A stretch of 64,000 nt of DNA from Lachnospiraceae bacterium UBA3273 (GTDB lineage Bacteria; Bacillota; Clostridia; Lachnospirales; Lachnospiraceae): NCBI GenBank assembly GCA_002362385.1, contig DEUB01000042.1:14033-78032 (forward strand), given 5' to 3'. Each line of letters starts with the position of its first letter. Within the stretch, counting starts at the first letter, position 1. Below, one piece after another: positions 2,140 through 51,798 of the stretch. The position numbers and the translations under genes were made by a program. The notes below the pieces were generated by a model, which made no database searches, had not been told where the DNA came from, and was given only the letters and a program-made list of their open reading frames with translations.

Positions 2140-2790
2140 ATGCATAATATATCGATTCGTGAACCCGGAAGTGCCATTACACATTTTATTGCCATGATAC
2201 TCGCCATGGGAAGCGCCATTCCCTTATTGATCAAAGCAGCGGAGTTTGGCACCCTTTCCGTCATTGCCATGTTCGTTTTTATCGGCAGCATGGTTTTGCT
2301 GTATGGCGCCAGCGCAACTTATCATTCCATCAATGTTGCACCCAATATCATAAAGATTTTCAGGAAGATCGACCACATGATGATCTTCATCATGATCGCC
2401 GGTTCCTACACTCCCGTCTGCCTTTTGGTTCTGGATAAATATACCGGCAGCCGGATGCTGGCAGCAGTATGGGGCGTTGCCCTTTTGGGTATTTTGATCA
2501 AAGCGCTCTGGATTACCTGTCCCAAATGGTTTTCTTCCATTCTTTACATTGGAATGGGATGGATCTGTATCAGCGCCATCAAGCCCATTATCCATACCTT
2601 ATCCCTGTCGGCATTTATGTGGCTTCTCGCCGGAGGCCTTCTGTATACCGTGGGAGGCGTGATCTACGCCTTAAAACTGAAGGTATTTAACGAAAAGCAC
2701 GCCGGCTTCGGTTCTCATGAGATATTCCACCTGTTCATTATGGCGGGAAGCTTCTGCCACTTTATCTTCATGTATCAATATGTGATCTGA
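2140..2790 (+). CDS. hemolysin III / PAQR family membrane protein
   Basis: AGGAGG RBS; about 7 TM; motifs S..YH, DH..IF..IAGSYTP, HEIFH. Confidence 0.9.
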   Translation: MHNISIREPGSAITHFIAMILAMGSAIPLLIKAAEFGTLSVIAMFVFIGSMVLLYGASATYHSINVAPNIIKIFRKIDHMMIFIMIAGSYTPVCLLVLDKYTGSRMLAAVWGVALLGILIKALWITCPKWFSSILYIGMGWICISAIKPIIHTLSLSAFMWLLAGGLLYTVGGVIYALKLKVFNEKHAGFGSHEIFHLFIMAGSFCHFIFMYQYVI

Positions 2791-4017
2791 TCATAATACC
2801 ATACCGTTTTTCTTTAAGAGTTCCCTCGCTGTCTCAACGCTGTCCACACCTGTGGCGTTTTTGATAGGAGCGAACTCTTTTTCTCTGACTACTTCAAAAG
2901 GCAGGCAGCTTTCCAGTTCATGGATCATATCGAGCACCAGCTGCTCAAATTTATAGCCGTTTGGCTCCTGCGGCTTTATTTCATTCCCGTTTTCATCCAG
3001 ACAATTGATTTTCTTCTCCACGATATGGAGACAGAGCTTGCGGGACATAATGCGCTCCAATGCGGATACGGAAAACAGATAATTTAAGATAACTCCAAAA
3101 TTATAGGCATATTCGCCTTTTTCATTGCGTTCCTCCTTCATCTGTTCCGTCAGCTCATAATACTCCACAATAGAAGGTCTGCCATCCTCTAAGCACATAA
3201 CGCCCACTTTTTCGTCTGGCGCCGCCTTACGCACTACTTTCGCCCCTACTTCCACAGCGCTGTCAATGGAAGCCCCTATAAAAACGGGATCCGCGATTTT
3301 CTGCAAAACATTATCCACTGCAAAAATGTTCAGCCATTCAATGCCGATCTCATGGATCTTATCGACCAGCCCGTTTCTGGCAAGCGAGACAAACCAGCCC
3401 CCGTTTCCGTTGGGGGAGGTTGAAATCTTGCTCTTTGTCTCCAAAAACACTTTTCCTTCAAAATCCACTGCAGGCGCCATTTCCTGTTTAAAAAACCATA
3501 CCATGTCTTTCCGATATCCGAAAAAATCATGTTCCTTAAAAAACTCCGTCGTTCTCTCATGGTTTTTGTCACTGGTCATGATAAACAAAGGCACCCATGC
3601 GTCCGCCTTCTTTACCACATCCAAAAGGTTATTGATTAAGCATTCAAAAATGTATAAATCTTTTGTCAGGCCTATATTATAAACGCCCTTTGGCTCGTCG
3701 CTGCCAAGACGGGTTCCCATTCCGCCGGCTAAAAGCACGGCGCCAACCTTTTGCTTTTGTATGGCGGAAAGCCCCAGGTCTTCAAAACGGGACCTTTTCT
3801 TTTCAATCTCGTCTATTTCCATGGAAACAATGGGAGTGATTTTTCCTCTTTCCGTTCCGCTTTCCCTGTGGTTTAAATTTTTCACTACAGAAAAATCCGT
3901 CCCGTCTATCTGTTCAAGCAGTTCCTTTTGTCTCCCGTCGTCCAGTTCTCCATAATATTTTAACAAATGCGTCTGATCATAAACCGCTAATTTTTCTAAA
4001 GCCTGATTGTAATCCAA
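2791..4017 (-). CDS. UDP-N-acetylglucosamine/UDP-sugar pyrophosphorylase (UDPGP family)
   Basis: LLAGGMGTRLG, SPNGNGG, KFE motifs; TTG start at 4017 after AAAGGAG. Confidence 0.88.
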   Translation of the reverse strand: MDYNQALEKLAVYDQTHLLKYYGELDDGRQKELLEQIDGTDFSVVKNLNHRESGTERGKITPIVSMEIDEIEKKRSRFEDLGLSAIQKQKVGAVLLAGGMGTRLGSDEPKGVYNIGLTKDLYIFECLINNLLDVVKKADAWVPLFIMTSDKNHERTTEFFKEHDFFGYRKDMVWFFKQEMAPAVDFEGKVFLETKSKISTSPNGNGGWFVSLARNGLVDKIHEIGIEWLNIFAVDNVLQKIADPVFIGASIDSAVEVGAKVVRKAAPDEKVGVMCLEDGRPSIVEYYELTEQMKEERNEKGEYAYNFGVILNYLFSVSALERIMSRKLCLHIVEKKINCLDENGNEIKPQEPNGYKFEQLVLDMIHELESCLPFEVVREKEFAPIKNATGVDSVETARELLKKNGMVL

Positions 4018-4187: not shown

Positions 4188-5117
4188 TTATAAATCTAAA
4201 GACAGCTTTTCAAAAAAATCACTTTTCCCCAGATGTTCTTCCTTGTATTTCATCAGAAACGCTTTCATCTGGGGATGTTCCCCGCCTAAATCCAACAGCA
4301 TTCCGTCAAAATTATCCGTCGTCAGACATCCCAGATCCGCAAAGAGGGAAATATATTCCATATCCTCCCCATGCTCTTCCTTTAACACCAGCCAGGTTTC
4401 CTCGCTTTCACAGCCCTTGGTATGGGAAAGCAGATAATCGGTCAATTCCCTTCGGTTATCATCTGCTAATTTCTTATCATATAAAAGTCTCAAAAACGCC
4501 ACCCTGACTTTTCTCTTTCTCTTTTGTTCCAGAAAATACTCCAGATTGTTTTCCCTGCTGCCGTAATCCTCTTCCCCGCATAAAAGCAGCTTGGTATATC
4601 CTTCCGTATCGTCCCCGTGAAGGATCGTCAGCATCCTTGCATCCCACAAAGCAAGCCATTCCTCATCATCCGCCTTCGTGGTCTGGAACAGATAAGGAGC
4701 GTCTAAAACGCCGCAGGTGGAAGCCAACAGGGAGCCAAAGCCACGGCACACCTCTTCTTCCCTGGCATTCCCGTTCTCCTTCTCCGTAAGGCAGATGCGC
4801 TTTAGGGAACTGCACTCCATAAAAAGAGATTTCCCCAGCTCATATTCTTTCCGTGAAAGATAGATTTCCTCCAAATCCCTGCAGTGGGCAAACGCCCAGT
4901 CTCCGATCCTTTCAAGGGTCTTTGGCAGATAAATCCTGTATAAACCGGAAACATTGAAAAAAGCTTTCTTTTCAATAGCAGTTACCGGCAGGCCGTCTAT
5001 GTCCGTGGGAATCACAAGCTCAATTTTATTTCCCTCATAGCCGGTAATGGTCACGCTTTTTTCTGAAATTGTATAATGATACAGGGCTCCAGCCTGTTCA
5101 AACCGTTTTTCTGTCAT
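4188..5117 (-). CDS. BspA-type leucine-rich repeat domain protein
   Basis: TITGY.G, VIP..IDG.PVTAI...AF, LP.TL..IG.WAF..C..L repeats. Confidence 0.8.
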   Translation of the reverse strand: MTEKRFEQAGALYHYTISEKSVTITGYEGNKIELVIPTDIDGLPVTAIEKKAFFNVSGLYRIYLPKTLERIGDWAFAHCRDLEEIYLSRKEYELGKSLFMECSSLKRICLTEKENGNAREEEVCRGFGSLLASTCGVLDAPYLFQTTKADDEEWLALWDARMLTILHGDDTEGYTKLLLCGEEDYGSRENNLEYFLEQKRKRKVRVAFLRLLYDKKLADDNRRELTDYLLSHTKGCESEETWLVLKEEHGEDMEYISLFADLGCLTTDNFDGMLLDLGGEHPQMKAFLMKYKEEHLGKSDFFEKLSLDL

Positions 5118-5140: not shown

Positions 5141-6637
5141 CTACAACTTTAATTCCCTGATTTCCTGCGCCAGCTGTTCTGTTCTTTCGGACAGCATCAG
5201 CTGTTTGTTCTGCCTCTGGTAAGCCTCGCAGCCAAAAGTGGCAATGAATCTGGAAGAATCATTGTTGACCGTCAGTTCCGTTACCAGAATCAGCATTTCA
5301 TTCCCACTTGAAAAAGCCTTTTCCACAAAGTCAAACAATGCCGAAAGCCTTCTCTGGCAAAGCTCCGTATCCTGTTTCATCCTGCTTACTTCTTCATCAA
5401 AACGGGATTTGATCAGGGCAAATACCTGGTCTGTAGAAGTCTGTTTACCCGTAACCGCTTCTTTCTTGCACCTTTCAAGAAAATGAAGGATTCTTTTATG
5501 CCTCTTTTTATCCGCCGGGGAAAGGGAACCGCCTTTTGCCAGATTCTGCATGATTTTTTCCCTTGCCTGTATCTGTTTATCCAGCATGGAAAGCCCGTCT
5601 TCCGCGTCCTTTACCGCCCTTAAGGGAGCCATCATATCCTGCAGATATGCTCCTGTTTCCATATTCTCCTTTATATCAGCAAGCATTTTATCCATAAGCA
5701 TGCCAAGTAGGGAGAGCCGCTCGTCGAAGGGCGCTTCCTCTGCTTTTTTCACAATCGTCTCCGTTACCGTTCCGCCTAAAATCTCATCCACATGATAATC
5801 CTTTTTATATTTCTGGTAAAGGTCGTAATACGCCCCGAATTCCTTTACGATCTTATCATTGCGGATATACTGTCCTATAAGGGCTTCGGATACGGAAAGC
5901 TTTTCCTCCTCATAGAGATATAAAATCTGGGAAAGATCCTCCCATCCCCTTGCGGTCACATAAAGCCTGCCTTTAACCGTTGTCTCAATATGATAAAAAT
6001 ATTCTTTCTTCAGTTCCAGAAAGCTTACGATGGCTCCGTGAATACCCATTTCCCTGGCATAGGTCTTCCATGCGTCGTAATCCGCTTCTACCTCCAGCAC
6101 CTTTAATCGGTCCATGGTAACCACATCGAACTCCCTGACGGATTTGTTATATTCCGGCGGATTACCGGCAGTAACAATGATCCAGCCTTCGGGAACCCTG
6201 TGCTTTCCAAAGGTTTTGTACTGCAAAAACTGCAGCATGGAGGGCGCAAGGGTCTCTGACACACAGTTAATCTCATCCAGAAACAGGATTCCCTCCTTGA
6301 TGCCGCTGCCTTCCATAGCCTCGTATACGGAAGCAATGATTTCACTCATAGTATATTCCGAAACCTGAAATTTTTCTCCTTCGTATTCCTTCTTTGTAAT
6401 ATAAGGAAGTCCCAGGGCGGACTGCCTTGTATGATGGGTCATGGAGTAGGACACCAGCGCAATGGAAAGTTCCGACGCCACCTGCTCCATGATAGCTGTT
6501 TTACCGATGCCGGGCGCCCCCAGGAGAAAAATAGGCCTCTGTCTGACTACCGGTATTCGGTATTCGCCGAATTCATCCTTCTTCAAATATAATCTGACGG
6601 AATCCTTAATATAATCCTTCGCCTGTCTGATATTCAT
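5141..6637 (-). CDS. MoxR-like AAA+ ATPase (AAA_5)
   Basis: Walker A GAPGIGKT, Walker B LFLDE, TAGNP; start ATG 6637. Confidence 0.88.
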   Translation of the reverse strand: MNIRQAKDYIKDSVRLYLKKDEFGEYRIPVVRQRPIFLLGAPGIGKTAIMEQVASELSIALVSYSMTHHTRQSALGLPYITKKEYEGEKFQVSEYTMSEIIASVYEAMEGSGIKEGILFLDEINCVSETLAPSMLQFLQYKTFGKHRVPEGWIIVTAGNPPEYNKSVREFDVVTMDRLKVLEVEADYDAWKTYAREMGIHGAIVSFLELKKEYFYHIETTVKGRLYVTARGWEDLSQILYLYEEEKLSVSEALIGQYIRNDKIVKEFGAYYDLYQKYKKDYHVDEILGGTVTETIVKKAEEAPFDERLSLLGMLMDKMLADIKENMETGAYLQDMMAPLRAVKDAEDGLSMLDKQIQAREKIMQNLAKGGSLSPADKKRHKRILHFLERCKKEAVTGKQTSTDQVFALIKSRFDEEVSRMKQDTELCQRRLSALFDFVEKAFSSGNEMLILVTELTVNNDSSRFIATFGCEAYQRQNKQLMLSERTEQLAQEIRELKL

Positions 6638-46203: not shown

Positions 46204-47448
46204 TTATTTCCAGTCAATGGATCCGCTAAAGACTACCTTATTCCTGCCTTTTGCAATCTTTCCGACTTCATAGCATTCATAATATTTTTGTACTGTATCT
46301 ACAACCTTTTTCTCCTCTTCCCTTTCCACCACAATCATGAACCCCACGCCGCAGTTAAAAGTGGACAGCATTTCTTCCTGCCCGATATTTCCTTTATTTC
46401 GGATATAGGAAAAAACAGGAAGGGGCTTTATTTTTGTCAAATCAATTTCCGCGCTTAAGCCGTCAGGCATTATCCTGCTTAAATTTCCTTCTATCCCGCC
46501 GCCTGTAATATGGGCCATCCCGTGAACATACGGACAGCCGAATAAATTTTTGACAGCTTTGTAATAAGGGGTGTGCGGTTTCATAATTTGCTCTATAAAT
46601 GTTTCTCCCTGGATTTTATCAAGCTTTATCTGCGGCATTTTATCCATAAGCATCCGCACAAGGGAGTAACCGTTTGTGTGAAGCCCATTAGAAGCAACTG
46701 CTAACACCACATCTCCTTCCCTGACCCGCGAACCGTCAATAATATTTTCCCTCCCCACGATTCCTGCAACACTTGATGTGAGGATATAGACGCCTTTCTC
46801 AATCACTTGCGGCTGAATGGAAGTCTCGCCGCCTACCAGATCACATTCATTTTCCCTGCACGCTTCTGAAATTCCTTTTACAAAAGATTTTATTGTTTCT
46901 TTTTCCGCATTGCCGCACACAATAGTGTCCAATACTGCTAAAGGTCTCGCGCCCATAACAACAATATCATTGACCAGATGGTTTATCATATCATGGCAGA
47001 TGGACTCACTATAGCCGTATTCCATGGCTAACTTTTGTTTTGATCCCGGTTCTTCCGCCTTCAAAACAAGAACCGGGTTTTTGATTTCCGGAAAATGAAT
47101 ATCATACAGGGATGCGAATGGGCCAAATCCATTTAAGACACGCTCATTTTCCGTCTTTAAGTAAACCGCCATTTCCCTTTTCATGGCGTCGGTATAAGAA
47201 ATGTCCACACCTGCCTTACTATACGAAAAACTTTCATTTTTCTTTTCTTCTCCATTTAAAATTTCATCCACGCTGACCCGCAAAAGCTTTGCCAGTTCCA
47301 CAAGCATTTCCACATTGGGCAGGGTTCCGTTTTCCCACTTGGAGACAGCCTGAAAGGAAACCTTTAATTTTTCCGCCACATCCGCCTGGGTCAATCCCAA
47401 AGCCTTTCTTCTATGTGAAATGAACTTTGCAATCTTCTGATTATCCAA
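46204..47448 (-). CDS. XRE-HTH fused to divergent PurM (AIR synthetase-like) protein
   Basis: N-terminal TQ.DVAE.L.VS.QAVSKWE.G; then YSKAGVD, VND...GA.P, GGET, GLH.NGYSL, HITGGG, FN.G.G; TTG start. Confidence 0.85.
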   Translation of the reverse strand: MDNQKIAKFISHRRKALGLTQADVAEKLKVSFQAVSKWENGTLPNVEMLVELAKLLRVSVDEILNGEEKKNESFSYSKAGVDISYTDAMKREMAVYLKTENERVLNGFGPFASLYDIHFPEIKNPVLVLKAEEPGSKQKLAMEYGYSESICHDMINHLVNDIVVMGARPLAVLDTIVCGNAEKETIKSFVKGISEACRENECDLVGGETSIQPQVIEKGVYILTSSVAGIVGRENIIDGSRVREGDVVLAVASNGLHTNGYSLVRMLMDKMPQIKLDKIQGETFIEQIMKPHTPYYKAVKNLFGCPYVHGMAHITGGGIEGNLSRIMPDGLSAEIDLTKIKPLPVFSYIRNKGNIGQEEMLSTFNCGVGFMIVVEREEEKKVVDTVQKYYECYEVGKIAKGRNKVVFSGSIDWK

Positions 47449-47463
47449 TAAAAAGCACCAACC

Positions 47464-47504
47464 TTTCCTGTTCTTATTGTATAAAACAGGAAACATTGAT
47501 GCAA
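47464..47504 (-). promoter_or_regulatory. sigma-A promoter with inverted-repeat operator
   Basis: TTGCAT-17-TACAAT on minus strand; TTTCCTGTT/AACAGGAAA inverted repeat straddling the -10. Confidence 0.65.
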
Positions 47505-47581
47505 TAACCGGATATTTGAAGATATAAAAAAATTTCTACCAGGAGTTGAATGATATGTTTTATCCCAAACAACAGAAATAA

Positions 47582-47669
47582 CGGAAAGGAAAGGATTCGA
47601 ACCTTCGGTACACTTGCGCGTACGGCGCATTAGCAATGCGCTGCCTTAGACCATCTCGGCCACCTTTCC
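47582..47669 (-). tRNA. tRNA-Ser(GCT), CCA not encoded
   Basis: acceptor GGAAAGG/CCTTTCC, discriminator G, anticodon arm GCGCA-TTGCTAA-TGCGC, long variable arm with GCAA loop, TTCGAAT T-loop. Confidence 0.92.
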
Positions 47670-47673
47670 ATAA

Positions 47674-47757
47674 TGGATGGGGCAGGACTCGAACCTGCGT
47701 TGTTTCTTATGTCAGGGTTTTACAGACCCCTGCCCTCGCCACTAGGCATACCCATCC
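47674..47757 (-). tRNA. tRNA-Tyr(GTA), atypical, CCA not encoded
   Basis: acceptor GGATGGG/CCCATCC, discriminator A, anticodon arm GGGGT-CTGTAAA-ACCCT, T arm GCAGG-TTCGAGT-CCTGC; 3-nt acceptor-D linker and poorly paired 15-nt variable region. Confidence 0.85.
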
Positions 47758-47818: not shown

Positions 47819-48073
47819 TTACGCGCCTATTTGTGTAGACGCCGCAATATTTATAACAAGAATATCATCTACCTGTACCTGAAAAATTACCGCCAATACT
47901 ACCAGATTATCTACGGAGGGCAAGGCCGTACCCTGCTGCCATTTGTAGATTGCCTGGGGTGTGGAGAAGCCAAAAATATTCTGGATATCTTTCACGGATA
48001 ATCCTTTTTCTTTCCTTAACTGTGTGATATTCTGTCCTGTTTTAACCATGTCAATGGTGGGAATTTGTATCAT
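47819..48073 (-). CDS. XRE family HTH transcriptional regulator
   Basis: AGGAGG RBS; LR..KGLSV..Q..FGF..PQAIYKWQ.G..LP. Confidence 0.9.
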   Translation of the reverse strand: MIQIPTIDMVKTGQNITQLRKEKGLSVKDIQNIFGFSTPQAIYKWQQGTALPSVDNLVVLAVIFQVQVDDILVINIAASTQIGA

Positions 48074-48149
48074 TTTTATGTCCTCCTGTTCTGGCAGACT
48101 GACGGTAAATAAGCTTCCCTTCTGGAGGTTTTAGCTTTTCTCTTCCCCC

Positions 48150-48280
48150 GACGTGCCTTAATCGCACAATTGCTTCGCAATCATGCGATTATAGGGCTTC
48201 GCCCTATAAGCTATATTTGCAAACCGTCTGATGGTAAGCAAGCTTCCCCTCAGACGCTTTACAAATATAGCTTGCACGTC
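48150..48280 (-). other. four-way-junction structured element (RNA or ssDNA) directly after the rtcB stop
   Basis: closing stem GACGTGC/GCACGTC plus three arms; two GC-GAA-GC loops on minus strand. Confidence 0.7.
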
Positions 48281-49480
48281 TCAGTTTGCCTTAAAGTTAT
48301 AAATCGGTTTCATGATGTCTATGACAGTTACGGATTCTTTGATGACGTCTATGATGTCTTCTAAAGATTTGTATGCCATAGGCGCTTCGTCTAATGTTGC
48401 TTCATTTACGGAAGTAGTATAGATTCCTTCCATTTCGCGTTTATAATCGTCCATATCCAAATTTTCCTTTGCTTTTTTTCTGGACATGATCCTTCCTGCC
48501 CCGTGGGGTGCGGAATAGTTCCATTCGGGATTGCCTTTACCCACGGCTAATACACTTCCGTCTCTCATATTAATAGGAATCAATACTTTCTCCCCTTCGT
48601 GGGCGGCAATGGCGCCTTTTCTTAAAATCATTTCTTCCGTATCAATATAATTATGAATGGTATGAAAGGAATCCGCGCCGCTCATACCCGTTCTATCCAA
48701 TAACACCTCCGCTATTTTTTCACGGTTTCTTCTGGCAAAGGTCTGGCAGATTTCCACATCAAAAAGATAATCTTCCAAATAGCTTCCATACAAAAAGCAT
48801 AAATCCTCCGGCATGGTTGCCTCCCTCTTATTCCAGGAGATCGCCTCTAAAGCTGCCTGTATTTCTTTTCTTCTGCCGGCCGCTTTATATTCACGGATAA
48901 TGGCGTCCCTTTCCTGAAAGTAAGTTTCCTTTCCTTTATTTAAATCAATTGCTAACTGCTGATAGATTTCCGCAACCTGCTTTCCAAGATTCCTGCTCCC
49001 GCTGTGTATCACAAGATAATTGGTTCCGTCCTCTGCCCGGTCAACCTCTATAAAGTGGTTTCCTCCGCCTAATGTACCCAGGCTTCTTTCTAACCTTTTC
49101 GTATCTCTAAGGCTTCTATAGCAGCGAAGAGCAGTCAGATCAAATCTTTCCTGTCTGCCTTCCCACACATTCATACCGGAAGGCACAAAATGTGCGGCTT
49201 CATCCAGCTTTTCAAAATCAATATCGCCTTTCCCCAAGGTTACCGTATACATCCCGCATCCGATATCCACTCCTACAATATTGGGAACGGCTTTATCCGT
49301 AACCGTCATGGTAGTTCCGATGGTGCAGCCTTTTCCCGCATGGACGTCGGGCATGATCCTTATCCTGCTTCCTTCTGTAAATTCATAATCGCACATCCGT
49401 CTGATCTGCTCTATAGCTTCATCTTCCACTACCTTCGCATAGCAGACAGCAGTATTCACTTTTCCTTTAATCTCCAACAT
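48281..49480 (-). CDS. rtcB: RtcB family RNA ligase (2',3'-cyclic/3'-phosphate to 5'-OH)
   Basis: MPDVH.G.G..IG, VGVDIGCG, LGGGNHF.E, HSGSR, HNY, SAPHGAGR. Confidence 0.95.
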   Translation of the reverse strand: MLEIKGKVNTAVCYAKVVEDEAIEQIRRMCDYEFTEGSRIRIMPDVHAGKGCTIGTTMTVTDKAVPNIVGVDIGCGMYTVTLGKGDIDFEKLDEAAHFVPSGMNVWEGRQERFDLTALRCYRSLRDTKRLERSLGTLGGGNHFIEVDRAEDGTNYLVIHSGSRNLGKQVAEIYQQLAIDLNKGKETYFQERDAIIREYKAAGRRKEIQAALEAISWNKREATMPEDLCFLYGSYLEDYLFDVEICQTFARRNREKIAEVLLDRTGMSGADSFHTIHNYIDTEEMILRKGAIAAHEGEKVLIPINMRDGSVLAVGKGNPEWNYSAPHGAGRIMSRKKAKENLDMDDYKREMEGIYTTSVNEATLDEAPMAYKSLEDIIDVIKESVTVIDIMKPIYNFKAN

Positions 49481-49590: not shown

Positions 49591-49629
49591 ATAATAAAAC
49601 CGCCTATCTCTCATATAAGATAAGCGGTT
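49591..49629 (-). terminator. attenuator terminator upstream of rtcB
   Basis: AACCGCTTATCT/AGATAGGCGGTT 12-bp stem then TTATTAT on minus strand. Confidence 0.8.
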
Positions 49630-49663
49630 CCTAAAATCCATGAAGTCTATGAATCATCCGACA

Positions 49664-49783
49664 TCACACAATTCTGCATCTTTGCCTTATCTTACATGAG
49701 CGCATAAAAGTTAAGCTCTGATCTTTCCTCAGTGCCTGATAACTTCTTTCTTCCAGATAATCAAATCGAAAAATTGTGTTCAT
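49664..49783 (-). CDS. putative leader peptide, 39 aa (MNTIFRFDYLEERSYQALRKDQSLTFMRSCKIRQRCRIV)
   Basis: GAAAGGA RBS, ATG 49783, TGA 49664-49666; lies between a promoter and a terminator and contains a segment complementary to the terminator. Confidence 0.75.
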   Translation of the reverse strand: MNTIFRFDYLEERSYQALRKDQSLTFMRSCKIRQRCRIV

Positions 49784-49836
49784 CGTTATTATTTCCTTTC
49801 CGGGTCAGCCTTAGACCGCTTTTTTATCTAATCCCT

Positions 49837-49865
49837 AATATAACACAAGAAATTTGTTCTGTCAT
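49837..49865 (-). promoter_or_regulatory. sigma-A promoter for leader/rtcB
   Basis: ATGACA-17-TGnTATATT (extended -10) on minus strand. Confidence 0.7.
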
Positions 49866-49950
49866 TATACCTGCGCTATAATTTTTCATTTTTTTGCATC
49901 AAGGTTAGATATATGCCCCGCTTTTAATTCCGTTTCTGGACACTCAATCT

Positions 49951-51798
49951 TTAATCCTCCGCAATGACGATCATATAATCTTCCTTTTCATATACAGTCT
50001 GCTCTGATTTTAAAGGATTTGTTACGATCTCTGTAGCGCCGTCCCTTATCTTCTTATAACCTATGGCAATATGCCCCTTTCTGGCAGCGCTTTCCGTTAC
50101 AGTATAAAAATCAACGGGAACTCCTGTTTTTACATATTCGGAAGCAGGCTTCATATAGATCTCCGAGCCTTCCTCATCCAAAATATCCTCAAAAAGCGCC
50201 GTCAATTCCCTGTTTTCGGCAATCTGGGTCATTAAAAGATTTATAATATTGGAGCCGATGACAAAATCCTCTACCCTGGCCTGGGTTGCAAGGCGCTGGT
50301 TATTGCTCTTTCTCATTTCACTGGTAATGGTAAACTTTTTCCCCGTTTTACCGGAAATATCCCGAAGGAAGATCAATTGCAGCAGAGTCTGGGAATCGGA
50401 TGCCTCCGCATCCAGCCCATCATCGCTTAAAACCAGTATATCGTCCACATCCGACGATAATAATTCCTCCAAAAGCCTGCGGTCCGTTCCCGATCCCATA
50501 ACCTGCTCGATCACAATGTTTTTATAAGCTGCTTTATCCAACTCCAGCTCGTTGGGGTAGACAATGGTAACCTCAGAACCCGGCTCCACATAACAGTCAT
50601 ATTCCCGCAGGATGCGTTCAATCATACTGTTACACCCCAAAATCAGCAGACTTTCCCTGTTTGCGGTTTTCTTTGCCCCGGAATTATTGATCAGTTCCTC
50701 CTGTATGGGCATCTCATTCAAATCCAGCTCAAAGGAACCGTCATCATCCTCCAGCAGAATGATCAGGTCTCCTTTCTCAAGCACCGTATCCATGGGCGGA
50801 TTCAGATGGGGACCGTCGTCTTTTCGGATGCCGAATACAACCGCTTTAGGAAACAGGTTCAGGGTCTCATGGAGCATCTTTCCGTATAGCTCGGGAACCT
50901 CTTCAAAATACAGTTCATCCCCGTCATAGTCAAAAAGCTCCACCAGCACATTGGACAATCCCGGCTGTCTGCAGGTATGGGCAATAATACGGGAAATAGC
51001 GTCATTGGCATGAATAATCTCCGCCCTGCCTTCTCCTGCGATCCTCGCCGCCTCCACATTCTGCTCGTTTTCAATGGCCGCAGTCATAAACAGATCTTTT
51101 ACCAATAATTCCTTATCCTTTAAATATGCAGAAACGGATAAGATGATTTTAATGACCTCCGCGTCCTCATAAACATTGATTATAACAGAACGGCTTCTTT
51201 CCACAGCGCATCTTTCCAGAATATGCGCTTCCGATAAAGAACCGCTCCGGCAGATCACACGGGAAGTTTTAAAATCGGATATGCGGGATGCGATAGCTTC
51301 CTCCATCTCTTCCTTCTCCTGTGTACCCACCACTACAATGCACTGATTTTTGTGATTAGAGTTAGCTTCAATTAACTCATTTAACAACGTATAGATATTG
51401 TCATTAAACCCTATGATAACCGTATGCCTTTCTTCCAGTACAATGGACTTTCCCTTGCGCAGTTCCTTCAGCCTGCTTTCAAAACCGGTGGTAATGATAC
51501 CGATTAAAATACTGGTTACAAACAGCCCGCATAGAGTTACCACAGACATTATGATCACATAAGGTATGCTGTCCAAAGTATCCGCCGTCAAGGTTCCTGC
51601 ATCCAGAACATGCATGGCGCTTGACCAGATCTGGCTTCCCAGACTGCCGTCCGCACCAAAAACAACTGCCGCAATTCCCGCAAGCCCTACCACGATCATA
51701 GTAATTCCAAATAGCAGGCCAATCAGTGCGATGGTTCCTTTGGACATAATATTGTCAAAATGATATTGTATTTTTTCTCCAAAGGTCCGCTTCTTCAT
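49951..51798 (-). CDS. CASTOR/POLLUX-related RCK-domain ion channel protein
   Basis: two N-terminal TM flanking pore-like DAGT segment, HTVIIG.N RCK domain, GLS.V..EL..Y.G.E, EGSEIY.KP. Confidence 0.82.
   Translation of the reverse strand: MKKRTFGEKIQYHFDNIMSKGTIALIGLLFGITMIVVGLAGIAAVVFGADGSLGSQIWSSAMHVLDAGTLTADTLDSIPYVIIMSVVTLCGLFVTSILIGIITTGFESRLKELRKGKSIVLEERHTVIIGFNDNIYTLLNELIEANSNHKNQCIVVVGTQEKEEMEEAIASRISDFKTSRVICRSGSLSEAHILERCAVERSRSVIINVYEDAEVIKIILSVSAYLKDKELLVKDLFMTAAIENEQNVEAARIAGEGRAEIIHANDAISRIIAHTCRQPGLSNVLVELFDYDGDELYFEEVPELYGKMLHETLNLFPKAVVFGIRKDDGPHLNPPMDTVLEKGDLIILLEDDDGSFELDLNEMPIQEELINNSGAKKTANRESLLILGCNSMIERILREYDCYVEPGSEVTIVYPNELELDKAAYKNIVIEQVMGSGTDRRLLEELLSSDVDDILVLSDDGLDAEASDSQTLLQLIFLRDISGKTGKKFTITSEMRKSNNQRLATQARVEDFVIGSNIINLLMTQIAENRELTALFEDILDEEGSEIYMKPASEYVKTGVPVDFYTVTESAARKGHIAIGYKKIRDGATEIVTNPLKSEQTVYEKEDYMIVIAED

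Follow-up and report, generated by a model that had tools for sequence, protein, structure and literature searches.

A putative leader-peptide attenuator family, probably sensing tRNA shortage, upstream of rtcB and tRNA genes in Lachnospiraceae

We examined the region upstream of rtcB in a 64,000-nucleotide (nt) stretch of DNA from Lachnospiraceae bacterium UBA3273 (GenBank assembly GCA_002362385.1, contig DEUB01000042.1, positions 14,033 to 78,032 of the forward strand); this whole stretch is referred to below as the window. Upstream of rtcB lies a leader element that runs from a candidate operator to the U-run of a terminator (49591-49881, minus strand). We consider it likely that this leader is a ribosome-dependent leader-peptide transcription attenuator, which gates rtcB, a gene for an XRE-family protein, tRNA-Tyr(GTA) and tRNA-Ser(GCT), and which most likely senses shortage of or damage to those tRNAs. 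The leader is conserved, with covariation, in more than 70 homologous loci, and leader codons fit the tRNAs of their own modules better than in permuted pairings (p<5e-5). The leader represents an attenuator family that is probably a tRNA-shortage sensor. The parts of the sequence, their conservation and covariation, the open frame and the agreement of codons with tRNAs are observed; that the ORF is translated, that ribosomes stall on it and cause read-through, which stress is involved and what the XRE protein does are what we infer from them.

Anatomy of the leader and proposed mechanism

A preliminary description of this DNA had listed a promoter, a ribosome-binding site (RBS), a 39-codon open reading frame (ORF) and a terminator, and all of them were found where it had placed them. 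The parts of the leader, in the order of transcription, are as follows.

49837 to 49865, minus strand: sigma-70-type promoter, with 10/12 matches in a consensus scan plus an upstream TG (-35 ATGACA at 49865-49860, 17-nt spacer, extended -10 TGtTATATT at 49845-49837)
49803 to 49817, minus strand: 5' hairpin GGTC...GACC, just 5' of the RBS
49793 to 49801, minus strand: Shine-Dalgarno sequence GGAAAGGAA
49664 to 49783, minus strand: leader ORF MNTIFRFDYLEERSYQALRKDQSLTFMRSCKIRQRCRIV, 39 codons plus TGA, with TAT at codons 9 and 15, AGT at codon 14 and AGC at codon 23 (49717-49715)
49767 to 49780, minus strand: 5' strand of helix P0, AACACAATTTTTCG, codons 2-6, pairing with 49678-49665
49755 to 49761, minus strand: conserved segment 1, the putative anti-antiterminator ATTATCT, codons 8-10; its TTATCT (49760-49755) pairs with AGATAA at 49692-49687
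49713 to 49737, minus strand: inner hairpin P2, AGGCACTG ... CAGAGCTT, within the sensor region, with codon 23 in its 3' strand
49686 to 49699, minus strand: segment 2, TCATGTAAGATAAG, codons 29-33, partner of either segment 1 or segment 3
49665 to 49678, minus strand: 3' strand of P0, TGCAGAATTGTGTG, at the end of the ORF and overlapping the first two bases of the stop codon
49611 to 49624, minus strand: segment 3, CTTATCTTATATGA, the 3' part of the terminator 5' arm plus the loop, forming a 14-bp antiterminator with segment 2
49591 to 49629, minus strand: intrinsic terminator (stem 49629-49618 / 49609-49598, loop 49617-49610, U-run 49599-49591)

The arms of the terminator, AACCGCTTATCT / AGATAGGCGGTT (49629-49598), have a stability of about -20 kcal/mol and are followed by UUUUAUUAU; the structure ends approximately 110 nt 5' of the rtcB start. 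A simple consensus terminator scan of the window did not list it; the likely reason is that G-U pairs carry the stem on into the U-run. The place and sequence of the promoter are kept across the leader family, and two pairs of the 5' hairpin covary (TC/GA, CT/AG, AC/GT, AG/CT) among the first nine homologs.

Transcription would start near 49830, and the nascent RNA is predicted to fold in two alternative ways. In the OFF fold, codons 2-10 (the 5' strand of P0 plus segment 1) would pair with codons 31-39 (segment 2 plus the 3' strand of P0) and leave the terminator free to form, while in the ON fold segment 2 would pair with the 5' arm and loop of the terminator. On an RNA without a ribosome, P0 and the 1:2 helix would form first and hold segment 2, leading to termination. 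A ribosome translating on as far as codon 27 or later would cover segment 2 while segments 3 and 4 are made, and this too should end in termination. A ribosome held at about codons 3-25, by contrast, would keep the 5' strand off segment 2, and the naked segment 2 could then form the antiterminator before the 3' arm of the terminator has been made, resulting in read-through. In addition, segment 1 would be physically covered by a ribosome stalled at codons 9-15. The cognate codons of the window leader that lie in this permissive range are TAT at codon 9, AGT-TAT at codons 14-15 and AGC at codon 23.

The output on tRNA shortage would be fresh copies of the tRNAs, RtcB ligase capable of resealing cleaved tRNAs, and the XRE protein. 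Since this output consists of extra copies of the very tRNAs being read together with a tRNA-resealing ligase, the signal most economically assumed is shortage of those tRNAs or damage to them. Ribosomes on the leader would likewise be held up by amino-acid starvation or by ribosome inhibitors.

Masked folding of the window leader is consistent with this scheme. We cut the transcript just before the 3' arm of the terminator and forbade pairs across the ribosome. All 14 base pairs of the antiterminator formed with the A site at codons 3-23 and 11 with the A site at codon 25, while none formed at codon 27 or later, where segment 2 is covered.

Conservation of the alternative RNA folds

Folding of the leader was better than that of 200/200 shuffled sequences (z = -3.43). 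Pairing and covariation were counted in 65 distinct homologs with segment positions taken from the model alignment, automated assignment of segments 1 and 2 by RNAduplex being too noisy in divergent homologs. The terminator, the distal 1:2 helix and P2 taken together had 93% of cells paired, and 21 of their 29 pairs change on both sides. Considered separately, the terminator had 94% of cells paired with 7 covarying pairs, P2 had 97-98% with all 7 of its pairs covarying, and the 1:2 helix (TTATCT:AGATAA) had 91% with covariation at 6/6 pairs, including the variants TTACCT:AGGTAA, TAGTCT:AGACTA and TTGCCT:AGGCAA.

The competing antiterminator lies outside the covariance model. In the window, segments 2 and 3 are complementary over 14 positions with one G-U pair (-17.0 kcal/mol by RNAduplex), as the preliminary description had reported, and this complementarity extends to the homologs, in which 90% of cells were paired compared to 34-58% when the partners were slid by 1-3 columns. 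Eight pairs of the antiterminator change on both sides. No shuffle matched the observed values for either the antiterminator or the set of terminator, 1:2 helix and P2.

A further long-range helix, P0, joins codons 2-7 with the region 3' of segment 2 at the end of the ORF. Most representatives have a comparable bipartite helix with compensatory changes (for example ACAATT:AATTGT, ACAGTT:AACTGT and CAGCATT:AATGTTG), and the mean z relative to shuffles was -2.5. Together with segment 1, P0 therefore makes codons 2-10 the 5' strand of the OFF fold, which encloses nearly the whole ORF. In the window, segment 1 can likewise pair with an AGATAA box near the transcription start (49829-49824), but this box is not conserved, and we discarded it as a partner.

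These data bear directly on the anti-antiterminator of the preliminary description, in which a local hairpin of 49715-49703 with segment 2 was the OFF structure and a ribosome waiting at the Ser-AGC codon 23 was the switch. The hairpin can indeed form in the window at 11/13 positions, codon 23 is the last A-site position tested that leaves segment 2 wholly free, and AGC is read by the downstream tRNA-Ser(GCT). Across the homologs, however, this helix was 62% paired, a value that 500/500 shuffles equaled or bettered, its covariation was below the shuffled mean, and only the three innermost pairs are kept. In addition, the minimum free energy structure of the single sequence pairs 49715-49703 with upstream sequence. 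Codon 23 itself reads GGC in G013, a near relative that retains tRNA-Tyr and tRNA-Ser in its module, and is Gly or Trp-Gly in many homologs; the G013 leader has CAT at codon 14 and AGT at codon 19. Codon 23 lies within the permissive range but is not unique, as stalls from about codon 3 to codon 25 free segment 2. The comparative data therefore appear largely to refute a switch confined to codon 23 and its local hairpin, which we now regard as most improbable. The trp/his-type logic of 1:2, 2:3 and 3:4 pairing that the description had proposed is upheld by the same comparisons, with a different segment 1, and its caveat that neighboring codons could be the trigger agrees with the breadth of the permissive range.

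Translation of the leader ORF

Several features suggest that the leader ORF is translated. A Shine-Dalgarno sequence, (C)CGGAAAGGA, is kept 6-12 nt 5' of the ATG in almost all of the 36 cluster representatives. Frame 0 is open in 36/36 of these, a count with some circularity, since only loci with an ORF were included, whereas frames +1 and +2 are never open (mean 3.8 and 5.6 stops, respectively). Among 71 loci the ORF was missing in only three, two of which are cut by a contig end. Insertions and deletions in the ORF are all multiples of three: 9, 12 and, several times, 15 nt. Third codon positions are somewhat more variable than the other two (108 changes, compared to 77 and 82), and the agreement of leader codons with module tRNAs, presented below, is confined to frame 0.

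Conservation of the ORF also bears on the possibility that it is incidental and that the folded leader (P0, P1, P2) acts as an RNA-only or protein-binding switch, responding to a ligand, to a tRNA or tRNA fragment in the manner of a T-box, or to the XRE protein. Such a switch would suit the elaborate, covarying, multi-helix fold closed by P0 and an XRE protein that is always co-encoded. However, the ORF, RBS and reading frame are kept in all homologs, the match of leader codons to tRNAs described below exists in frame only, and a search of the leader against all Rfam families at E<=1 returned zero matches, T-box (RF00230) included. We think it very unlikely that the leader is a switch of this kind.

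A translated leader could also act through its product, either as an arrest peptide that responds to a small molecule or as a small protein acting in trans; peTrpL has been described as a leader peptide that acts in trans. The pattern (D/Y)YL.SE.YEAL...QSL.FMRS(Y/C)KIR is found repeatedly within the family, and the peptide has a basic C-terminus, which favors a functional peptide. The most conserved residues, however, are those encoded by the nucleotides of segment 1, segment 2 and P2, so constraints on the RNA explain their conservation, and the leaders of phage type and of internal array units have unrelated peptides yet follow the same codon-tRNA logic. The peptide itself is therefore a highly improbable agent.

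In two loci, L078 and L045 (the latter in genome G064), the leaders are frameshifted relative to close relatives. The frameshift in L078 is caused by a 1-nt change in an A-run, and the ORF there ends early at a stop codon within segment 2. These frameshifts may represent assembly error, decay or phase variation.

Correspondence between leader codons and module tRNAs

The preliminary description had noted that AGY and TAY codons of the leader match both downstream tRNAs, and this observation extends to the family as a whole. In the sensor region, taken as the alignment columns that correspond to window codons 8-26, there is an approximately twofold enrichment of Tyr, Ser, His and Gln compared to the long ORFs of the genome. 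Serine in this region is encoded by 64 AGY and 25 TCN codons, while AGY makes up 37% of Ser codons genome-wide.

We permuted the pairings of leaders and modules in two ways. With the aligned sensor region of 19 representatives, the fraction of leader codons cognate to module tRNAs was 0.257, compared to 0.201+-0.012 for permuted pairings, and 0/20000 permutations reached the observed value. An alignment-free version with codons 2-30 of 23 representatives gave 0.228 against 0.174+-0.009 (again 0/20000), and a mean longest cognate run of 3.48 against 2.03+-0.23. Neither test showed an excess of cognate codons in frames +1 or +2. The choice of serine codons follows the same trend, with an AGY:TCN ratio of 13:4 where the module has only tRNA-Ser(gct) and 4:8 where it has a Ser tRNA that reads TCN (Fisher p = 0.029).

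Individual loci supply the most persuasive evidence for the correspondence, which is of a qualitative nature. Three of these (L166, L168 and L186) have divergent leaders that the covariance model missed. Codons 6-19 of the L168 leader read YEHYEYEHELLLHE, and the tRNAs downstream are Glu, Glu, His, Tyr, Leu(taa), Leu(caa) and Leu(tag). In L186, 16 of 17 consecutive codons, TCY serine included, are cognate to its Glu, Phe, Tyr, Glu, Ser(gct) and Ser(aga) tRNAs. The L166 leader contains Trp, Gln, Phe, Tyr and Glu codons, and exactly those tRNAs lie downstream.

Another example is an array of 24 tRNAs in Butyrivibrio sp. VCD2006 (L125, NZ_AUIX01000044.1, 4245-8224), which comprises three leader-terminator units. 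Of 29 codons in the first leader, 18 are cognate to the 12 tRNAs that come next. Codons 7-24 of the second leader, NKQFNNKQFMQFCKNQKC, are cognate at 18/18 positions to the seven tRNAs that follow it (Gln, Cys, Phe, Lys, Lys, Asn, Met), and the six amino acids of this block have no tRNA in the preceding one. By our arithmetic from genome amino-acid usage, the chance of such an 18-codon run at any one position is about 2e-12. The third leader is rich in Met, Ile, Ala, Val and Asp codons, and tRNAs for Ile, Ala, Val, Asp and Met follow it. As judged from these sequences, long tRNA arrays of this kind are chains of what appear to be independently gated modules. The second unit of the Butyrivibrio array also has its own XRE paralog (6294-6515).

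It is conceivable that the leader is a general sensor of translation stress, in which read-through follows whenever ribosomes are slowed by antibiotics, damaged rRNA or global starvation, and the choice of codons has no role or only fine-tunes the response. The permissive stall range is broad, about codons 3-25, in keeping with such a sensor, and several translation inhibitors induce an Anabaena tRNA array together with rtcB (PMC8421152). In many closely related loci the leader is unchanged despite the loss of individual tRNAs, and some modules hold just rtcB and the XRE gene, both of which fit a general sensor and weigh against one tuned to particular tRNAs. However, the match between leader codons and module tRNAs exists in frame only, and the perfect runs in L168, L186 and the three-leader Butyrivibrio array are hard to explain without sensing of specific decoding. 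A purely general sensor thus seems to us rather unlikely, although the two readings are mutually compatible.

Other observations also weigh against an attenuator addressed to specific tRNAs. At equilibrium, the full-length RNA always prefers the terminator, even with ribosome masks; the choice must therefore be kinetic, as in classical attenuators. Tight coupling of transcription and translation is not a given in Firmicutes. The leader of the window has only 4 of 29 codons cognate to its module, where our arithmetic from genome usage predicts about 2 (Tyr 4.6% plus AGY about 2.2%), so the argument from codons rests on the family and not on the window copy. The sequences in the permutation tests are related, and their p-values therefore overstate independence. 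Constraints on peptide, codons and RNA are confounded, since the positions enriched in Tyr and Ser are in part homologous columns and also overlap RNA helices. Finally, the excess of changes at third codon positions in the ORF is mild (108, compared to 77 and 82 at the other two positions).

Comparison with known regulatory systems

The sequence features by which leader-peptide attenuators are recognized are present here: an ORF with an RBS, a terminator, a mutually exclusive antiterminator partly within the ORF, a segment 1 that a ribosome could mask and, at the level of the family, codons related to the regulated genes. The regulatory-codon signal in the window itself (TAT twice, AGT, AGC) is modest. 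In classical attenuators such as E. coli trp, his, thr, leu, ilv and pheST, a stall on hungry codons favors the antiterminator. The leader described here resembles these in its short, apparently translated ORF with regulatory codons, its 1:2/2:3/3:4 segments and its intrinsic terminator, and control of a part of the translation machinery has a precedent in the pheST leader. However, the genes regulated here encode tRNAs, an RNA ligase and a repressor-like protein rather than biosynthetic enzymes or a synthetase; the sensor covers several amino acids, matched to the downstream tRNAs; several units can be chained in one array; the anti-antiterminator spans codons 2-10 and encloses nearly the whole ORF; and the host belongs to a Gram-positive family, in which such control is usually exerted by T-boxes. 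The regulation would therefore be leader-peptide attenuation with a new output and a new, module-matched, multi-tRNA sensor.

T-boxes are untranslated and contact uncharged tRNA directly, by means of a specifier codon and the T-box sequence. They share with this leader a Firmicutes setting and transcription attenuation that reports on one specific tRNA through a choice between terminator and antiterminator. The leader differs in having no T-box match and in being built around what appears to be a translated ORF.

Stalling in a short upstream ORF (uORF) relieves premature termination in several stress and antibiotic attenuators, including bmrB-bmrCD, vmlR, the topAI uORF and the whiB7 uORF (e.g. 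PMC9226507, PMC12121999), some of which occur in Gram-positive bacteria. Those systems, however, gate resistance or stress genes, their stall depends on a drug or on alanine, and none has been reported to gate tRNA genes or to have a codon set matching downstream tRNAs.

The closest biological parallel is found in Anabaena sp. PCC 7120, in which a supernumerary and normally silent trn L-array is switched on together with rtcB when translation is impaired (PMC8421152), under the control of the autoregulated ribbon-helix-helix (RHH) repressor TrcR and direct repeats at the promoter (PMC10272220). The two systems share supernumerary tRNA genes that are co-regulated with rtcB (which here would follow from their common orientation behind one attenuator) and the involvement of a DNA-binding repressor, putative in the present case. 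The Anabaena system relies on a trans-acting RHH repressor, in contrast to the apparently cis-acting, codon-addressed sensor and the XRE protein with a palindromic site proposed here. The hallmarks of TrcR control, an RHH repressor and 9-nt direct repeats over the -10 and transcription start site, do not fit this locus, where the regulator is of the HTH_3 (XRE) type and the repeat is inverted and upstream of the -35. No leader ORF or attenuator is described for Anabaena (PMC8421152, PMC10272220), and the strings 'leader' and 'attenuat' do not occur in the paper on the L-array (PMC8421152).

In Salmonella and E. coli, rtcBA is controlled by RtcR, whose CARF domain senses tRNA halves with cyclic phosphates and activates a sigma-54 promoter (PMC7790460, PMC10159003). 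RtcB would be induced upon tRNA damage in both cases, although the leader would sense slow decoding and not fragments. No RtcR- or RtcA-like domain was found among the neighbors tested (the Castor/RCK channel-like protein, the XRE helix-turn-helix (HTH) protein and the HTH-PurM fusion).

No description of a leader-peptide attenuator upstream of rtcB or of tRNA genes was found in the full-text literature searched, from which most subscription-journal papers are missing; according to the literature searched, this would be the first leader-peptide attenuator for tRNA genes and an RNA repair ligase. If the model is correct, it constitutes a direct feedback loop from decoding capacity to tRNA supply, and offers a concrete, testable answer to how RtcB is regulated outside the proteobacteria and how silent supernumerary tRNA arrays sense stress. 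It would also provide an annotation rule for hundreds of tRNA clusters in gut bacteria and phages, and implicates toxins that target tRNAs as a major source of selection among gut bacteria. Because cultured carriers exist (Butyrivibrio sp. VCD2006, Otoolea muris DSM 111138, Acetatifactor aquisgranensis DSM 110981 and Lachnospiraceae bacterium A4 and COE1), the model is directly testable.

Distribution and design of the modules

The covariance model, built on the 3' 171 nt of the leader (171 positions), matched 20/150 genomes sampled one per genus across Lachnospiraceae, and gave only two weak matches in the same order outside this family. The leader is single-copy in its genome. BLAST comparison with related genomes identified homologous leaders, two of which have the terminator followed directly by tRNA-Lys instead of rtcB. 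The leader always stands at the head of a module, and the modules keep one order: the leader, 0-3 tRNAs, an optional rtcB, the XRE gene (whose 84-residue product we call HTH84) and then 0-24 tRNAs, and loci in Butyrivibrio have arrays of at least 24 tRNAs. The most common module tRNAs are Tyr(gta), Ser(gct), Glu(ttc), Glu(ctc), Lys(ttt) and His(gtg), and rtcB is present in about a third of homologous loci.

HTH84 is the most constant partner of the leader. Its relatives occur in at least 579 stretches of species-representative genomes, and in the best 80 of these, which constituted our survey with HTH84 as bait, a leader lies upstream on the same strand in 71 of 80 loci. Among viral contigs (IMG/VR), HTH84 relatives are followed by tRNA arrays in 70 of 80 loci. 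Divergent leader ORFs with terminators precede HTH84 relatives in IMG/VR loci L181-L242 (e.g. L186, 4200-5350), where the covariance model missed them. The same module design is found on phage-like contigs and on the chromosomes of Lachnospiraceae.

In a 99%-complete relative, the module tRNAs are divergent extra copies of tRNA species that are also encoded in housekeeping clusters. Altered anticodon loops were considered as a general property of module tRNAs but are not generally supported: the Lys, His and Tyr loops of G012 are identical to the housekeeping ones, and its Glu(ttc) loop ends in CAA, compared to CAC in the housekeeping copy.

Taken more broadly, Lachnospiraceae and some of their phages may carry self-addressed tRNA modules, in which every block of spare tRNA genes, whether or not it includes rtcB, has a leader ORF of its own, the leader codons list exactly the tRNAs of the block and the loss of any of these, for instance through anticodon nucleases of phage defense or bacterial warfare, would be sensed by the ribosome and answered by replacement and repair, long arrays being chains of independently gated units. 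We put this generalization forward tentatively, as a possibility that falls just short of an even chance.

In several loci (L083, L101, L079 at about 4365-4458, and L163 at about 1284), the tRNA-Lys(TTT) that follows the terminator has an insertion of approximately 19 nt, AAGGGATAAAGGnCATCCCT, which forms a small hairpin on the 5' side of the anticodon arm; because of it, ARAGORN calls the gene Pro(agg). The insertion may be an intervening sequence or mark a disrupted gene.

Neighborhood of the leader in the window

The order of genes on the minus strand is the Castor/RCK channel-like gene, a 470-nt gap, rtcB, the XRE gene, tRNA-Tyr, tRNA-Ser and the HTH-PurM fusion. The features outside the leader transcript and terminator are as follows.

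Ending at 49951, minus strand: Castor/RCK channel-like gene, 615 amino acids
49865 to 49881, minus strand: candidate palindromic operator TTATAG-N5-GTATAA, abutting the -35 hexamer (family consensus TTATAC-N5-GTATAA)
48281 to 49480, minus strand: rtcB, 399 amino acids, the first gene presumed to be gated (Pfam RtcB, 5e-56)
47819 to 48073, minus strand: gene for the XRE-family HTH protein HTH84, 84 amino acids, with the motif FGFSTPQAIYKWQ (Pfam HTH_3)
47674 to 47757, minus strand: tRNA-Tyr(GTA), putatively a gated spare tRNA (ARAGORN and Rfam, 53.8 bits)
47581 to 47670, minus strand: tRNA-Ser(GCT), putatively a gated spare tRNA (ARAGORN and Rfam)

The operator palindrome is kept nearly letter for letter in about 30/36 cluster representatives and thereby exceeds the promoter hexamers in conservation. 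HTH84 probably uses it as an operator, which would constitute a second layer of control at the level of DNA, with the XRE protein as a candidate for binding it and exerting probable feedback on the promoter. The best NCBIfam similarity of HTH84 is to the RstR family of transcriptional repressors, below the curated cut-off.

A TATAAT at 49563-49558 was considered as part of an internal promoter between the terminator and rtcB and was rejected, as it has no acceptable -35, is not conserved in relatives and was not called by the promoter scan. The module tRNA-Ser(GCT) is very unlike the second tRNA-Ser(GCT) of the genome. The spacer between rtcB and the XRE gene (48074-48280) is approximately 210 nt in the close relatives of the window and 50-90 nt in two other genera (G151 and G027). 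In G027 (locus L040, oriented 2316-3419), a second, divergent RtcB with 40% identity to the first is encoded directly after the XRE gene. Directly after the tRNA pair of the window, at 46204-47496, lies an HTH_3 domain fused to a full PurM-like body (TIGR00878, 2e-84), and this HTH-PurM fusion gene keeps its position after the tRNA pair within the genus of the window.

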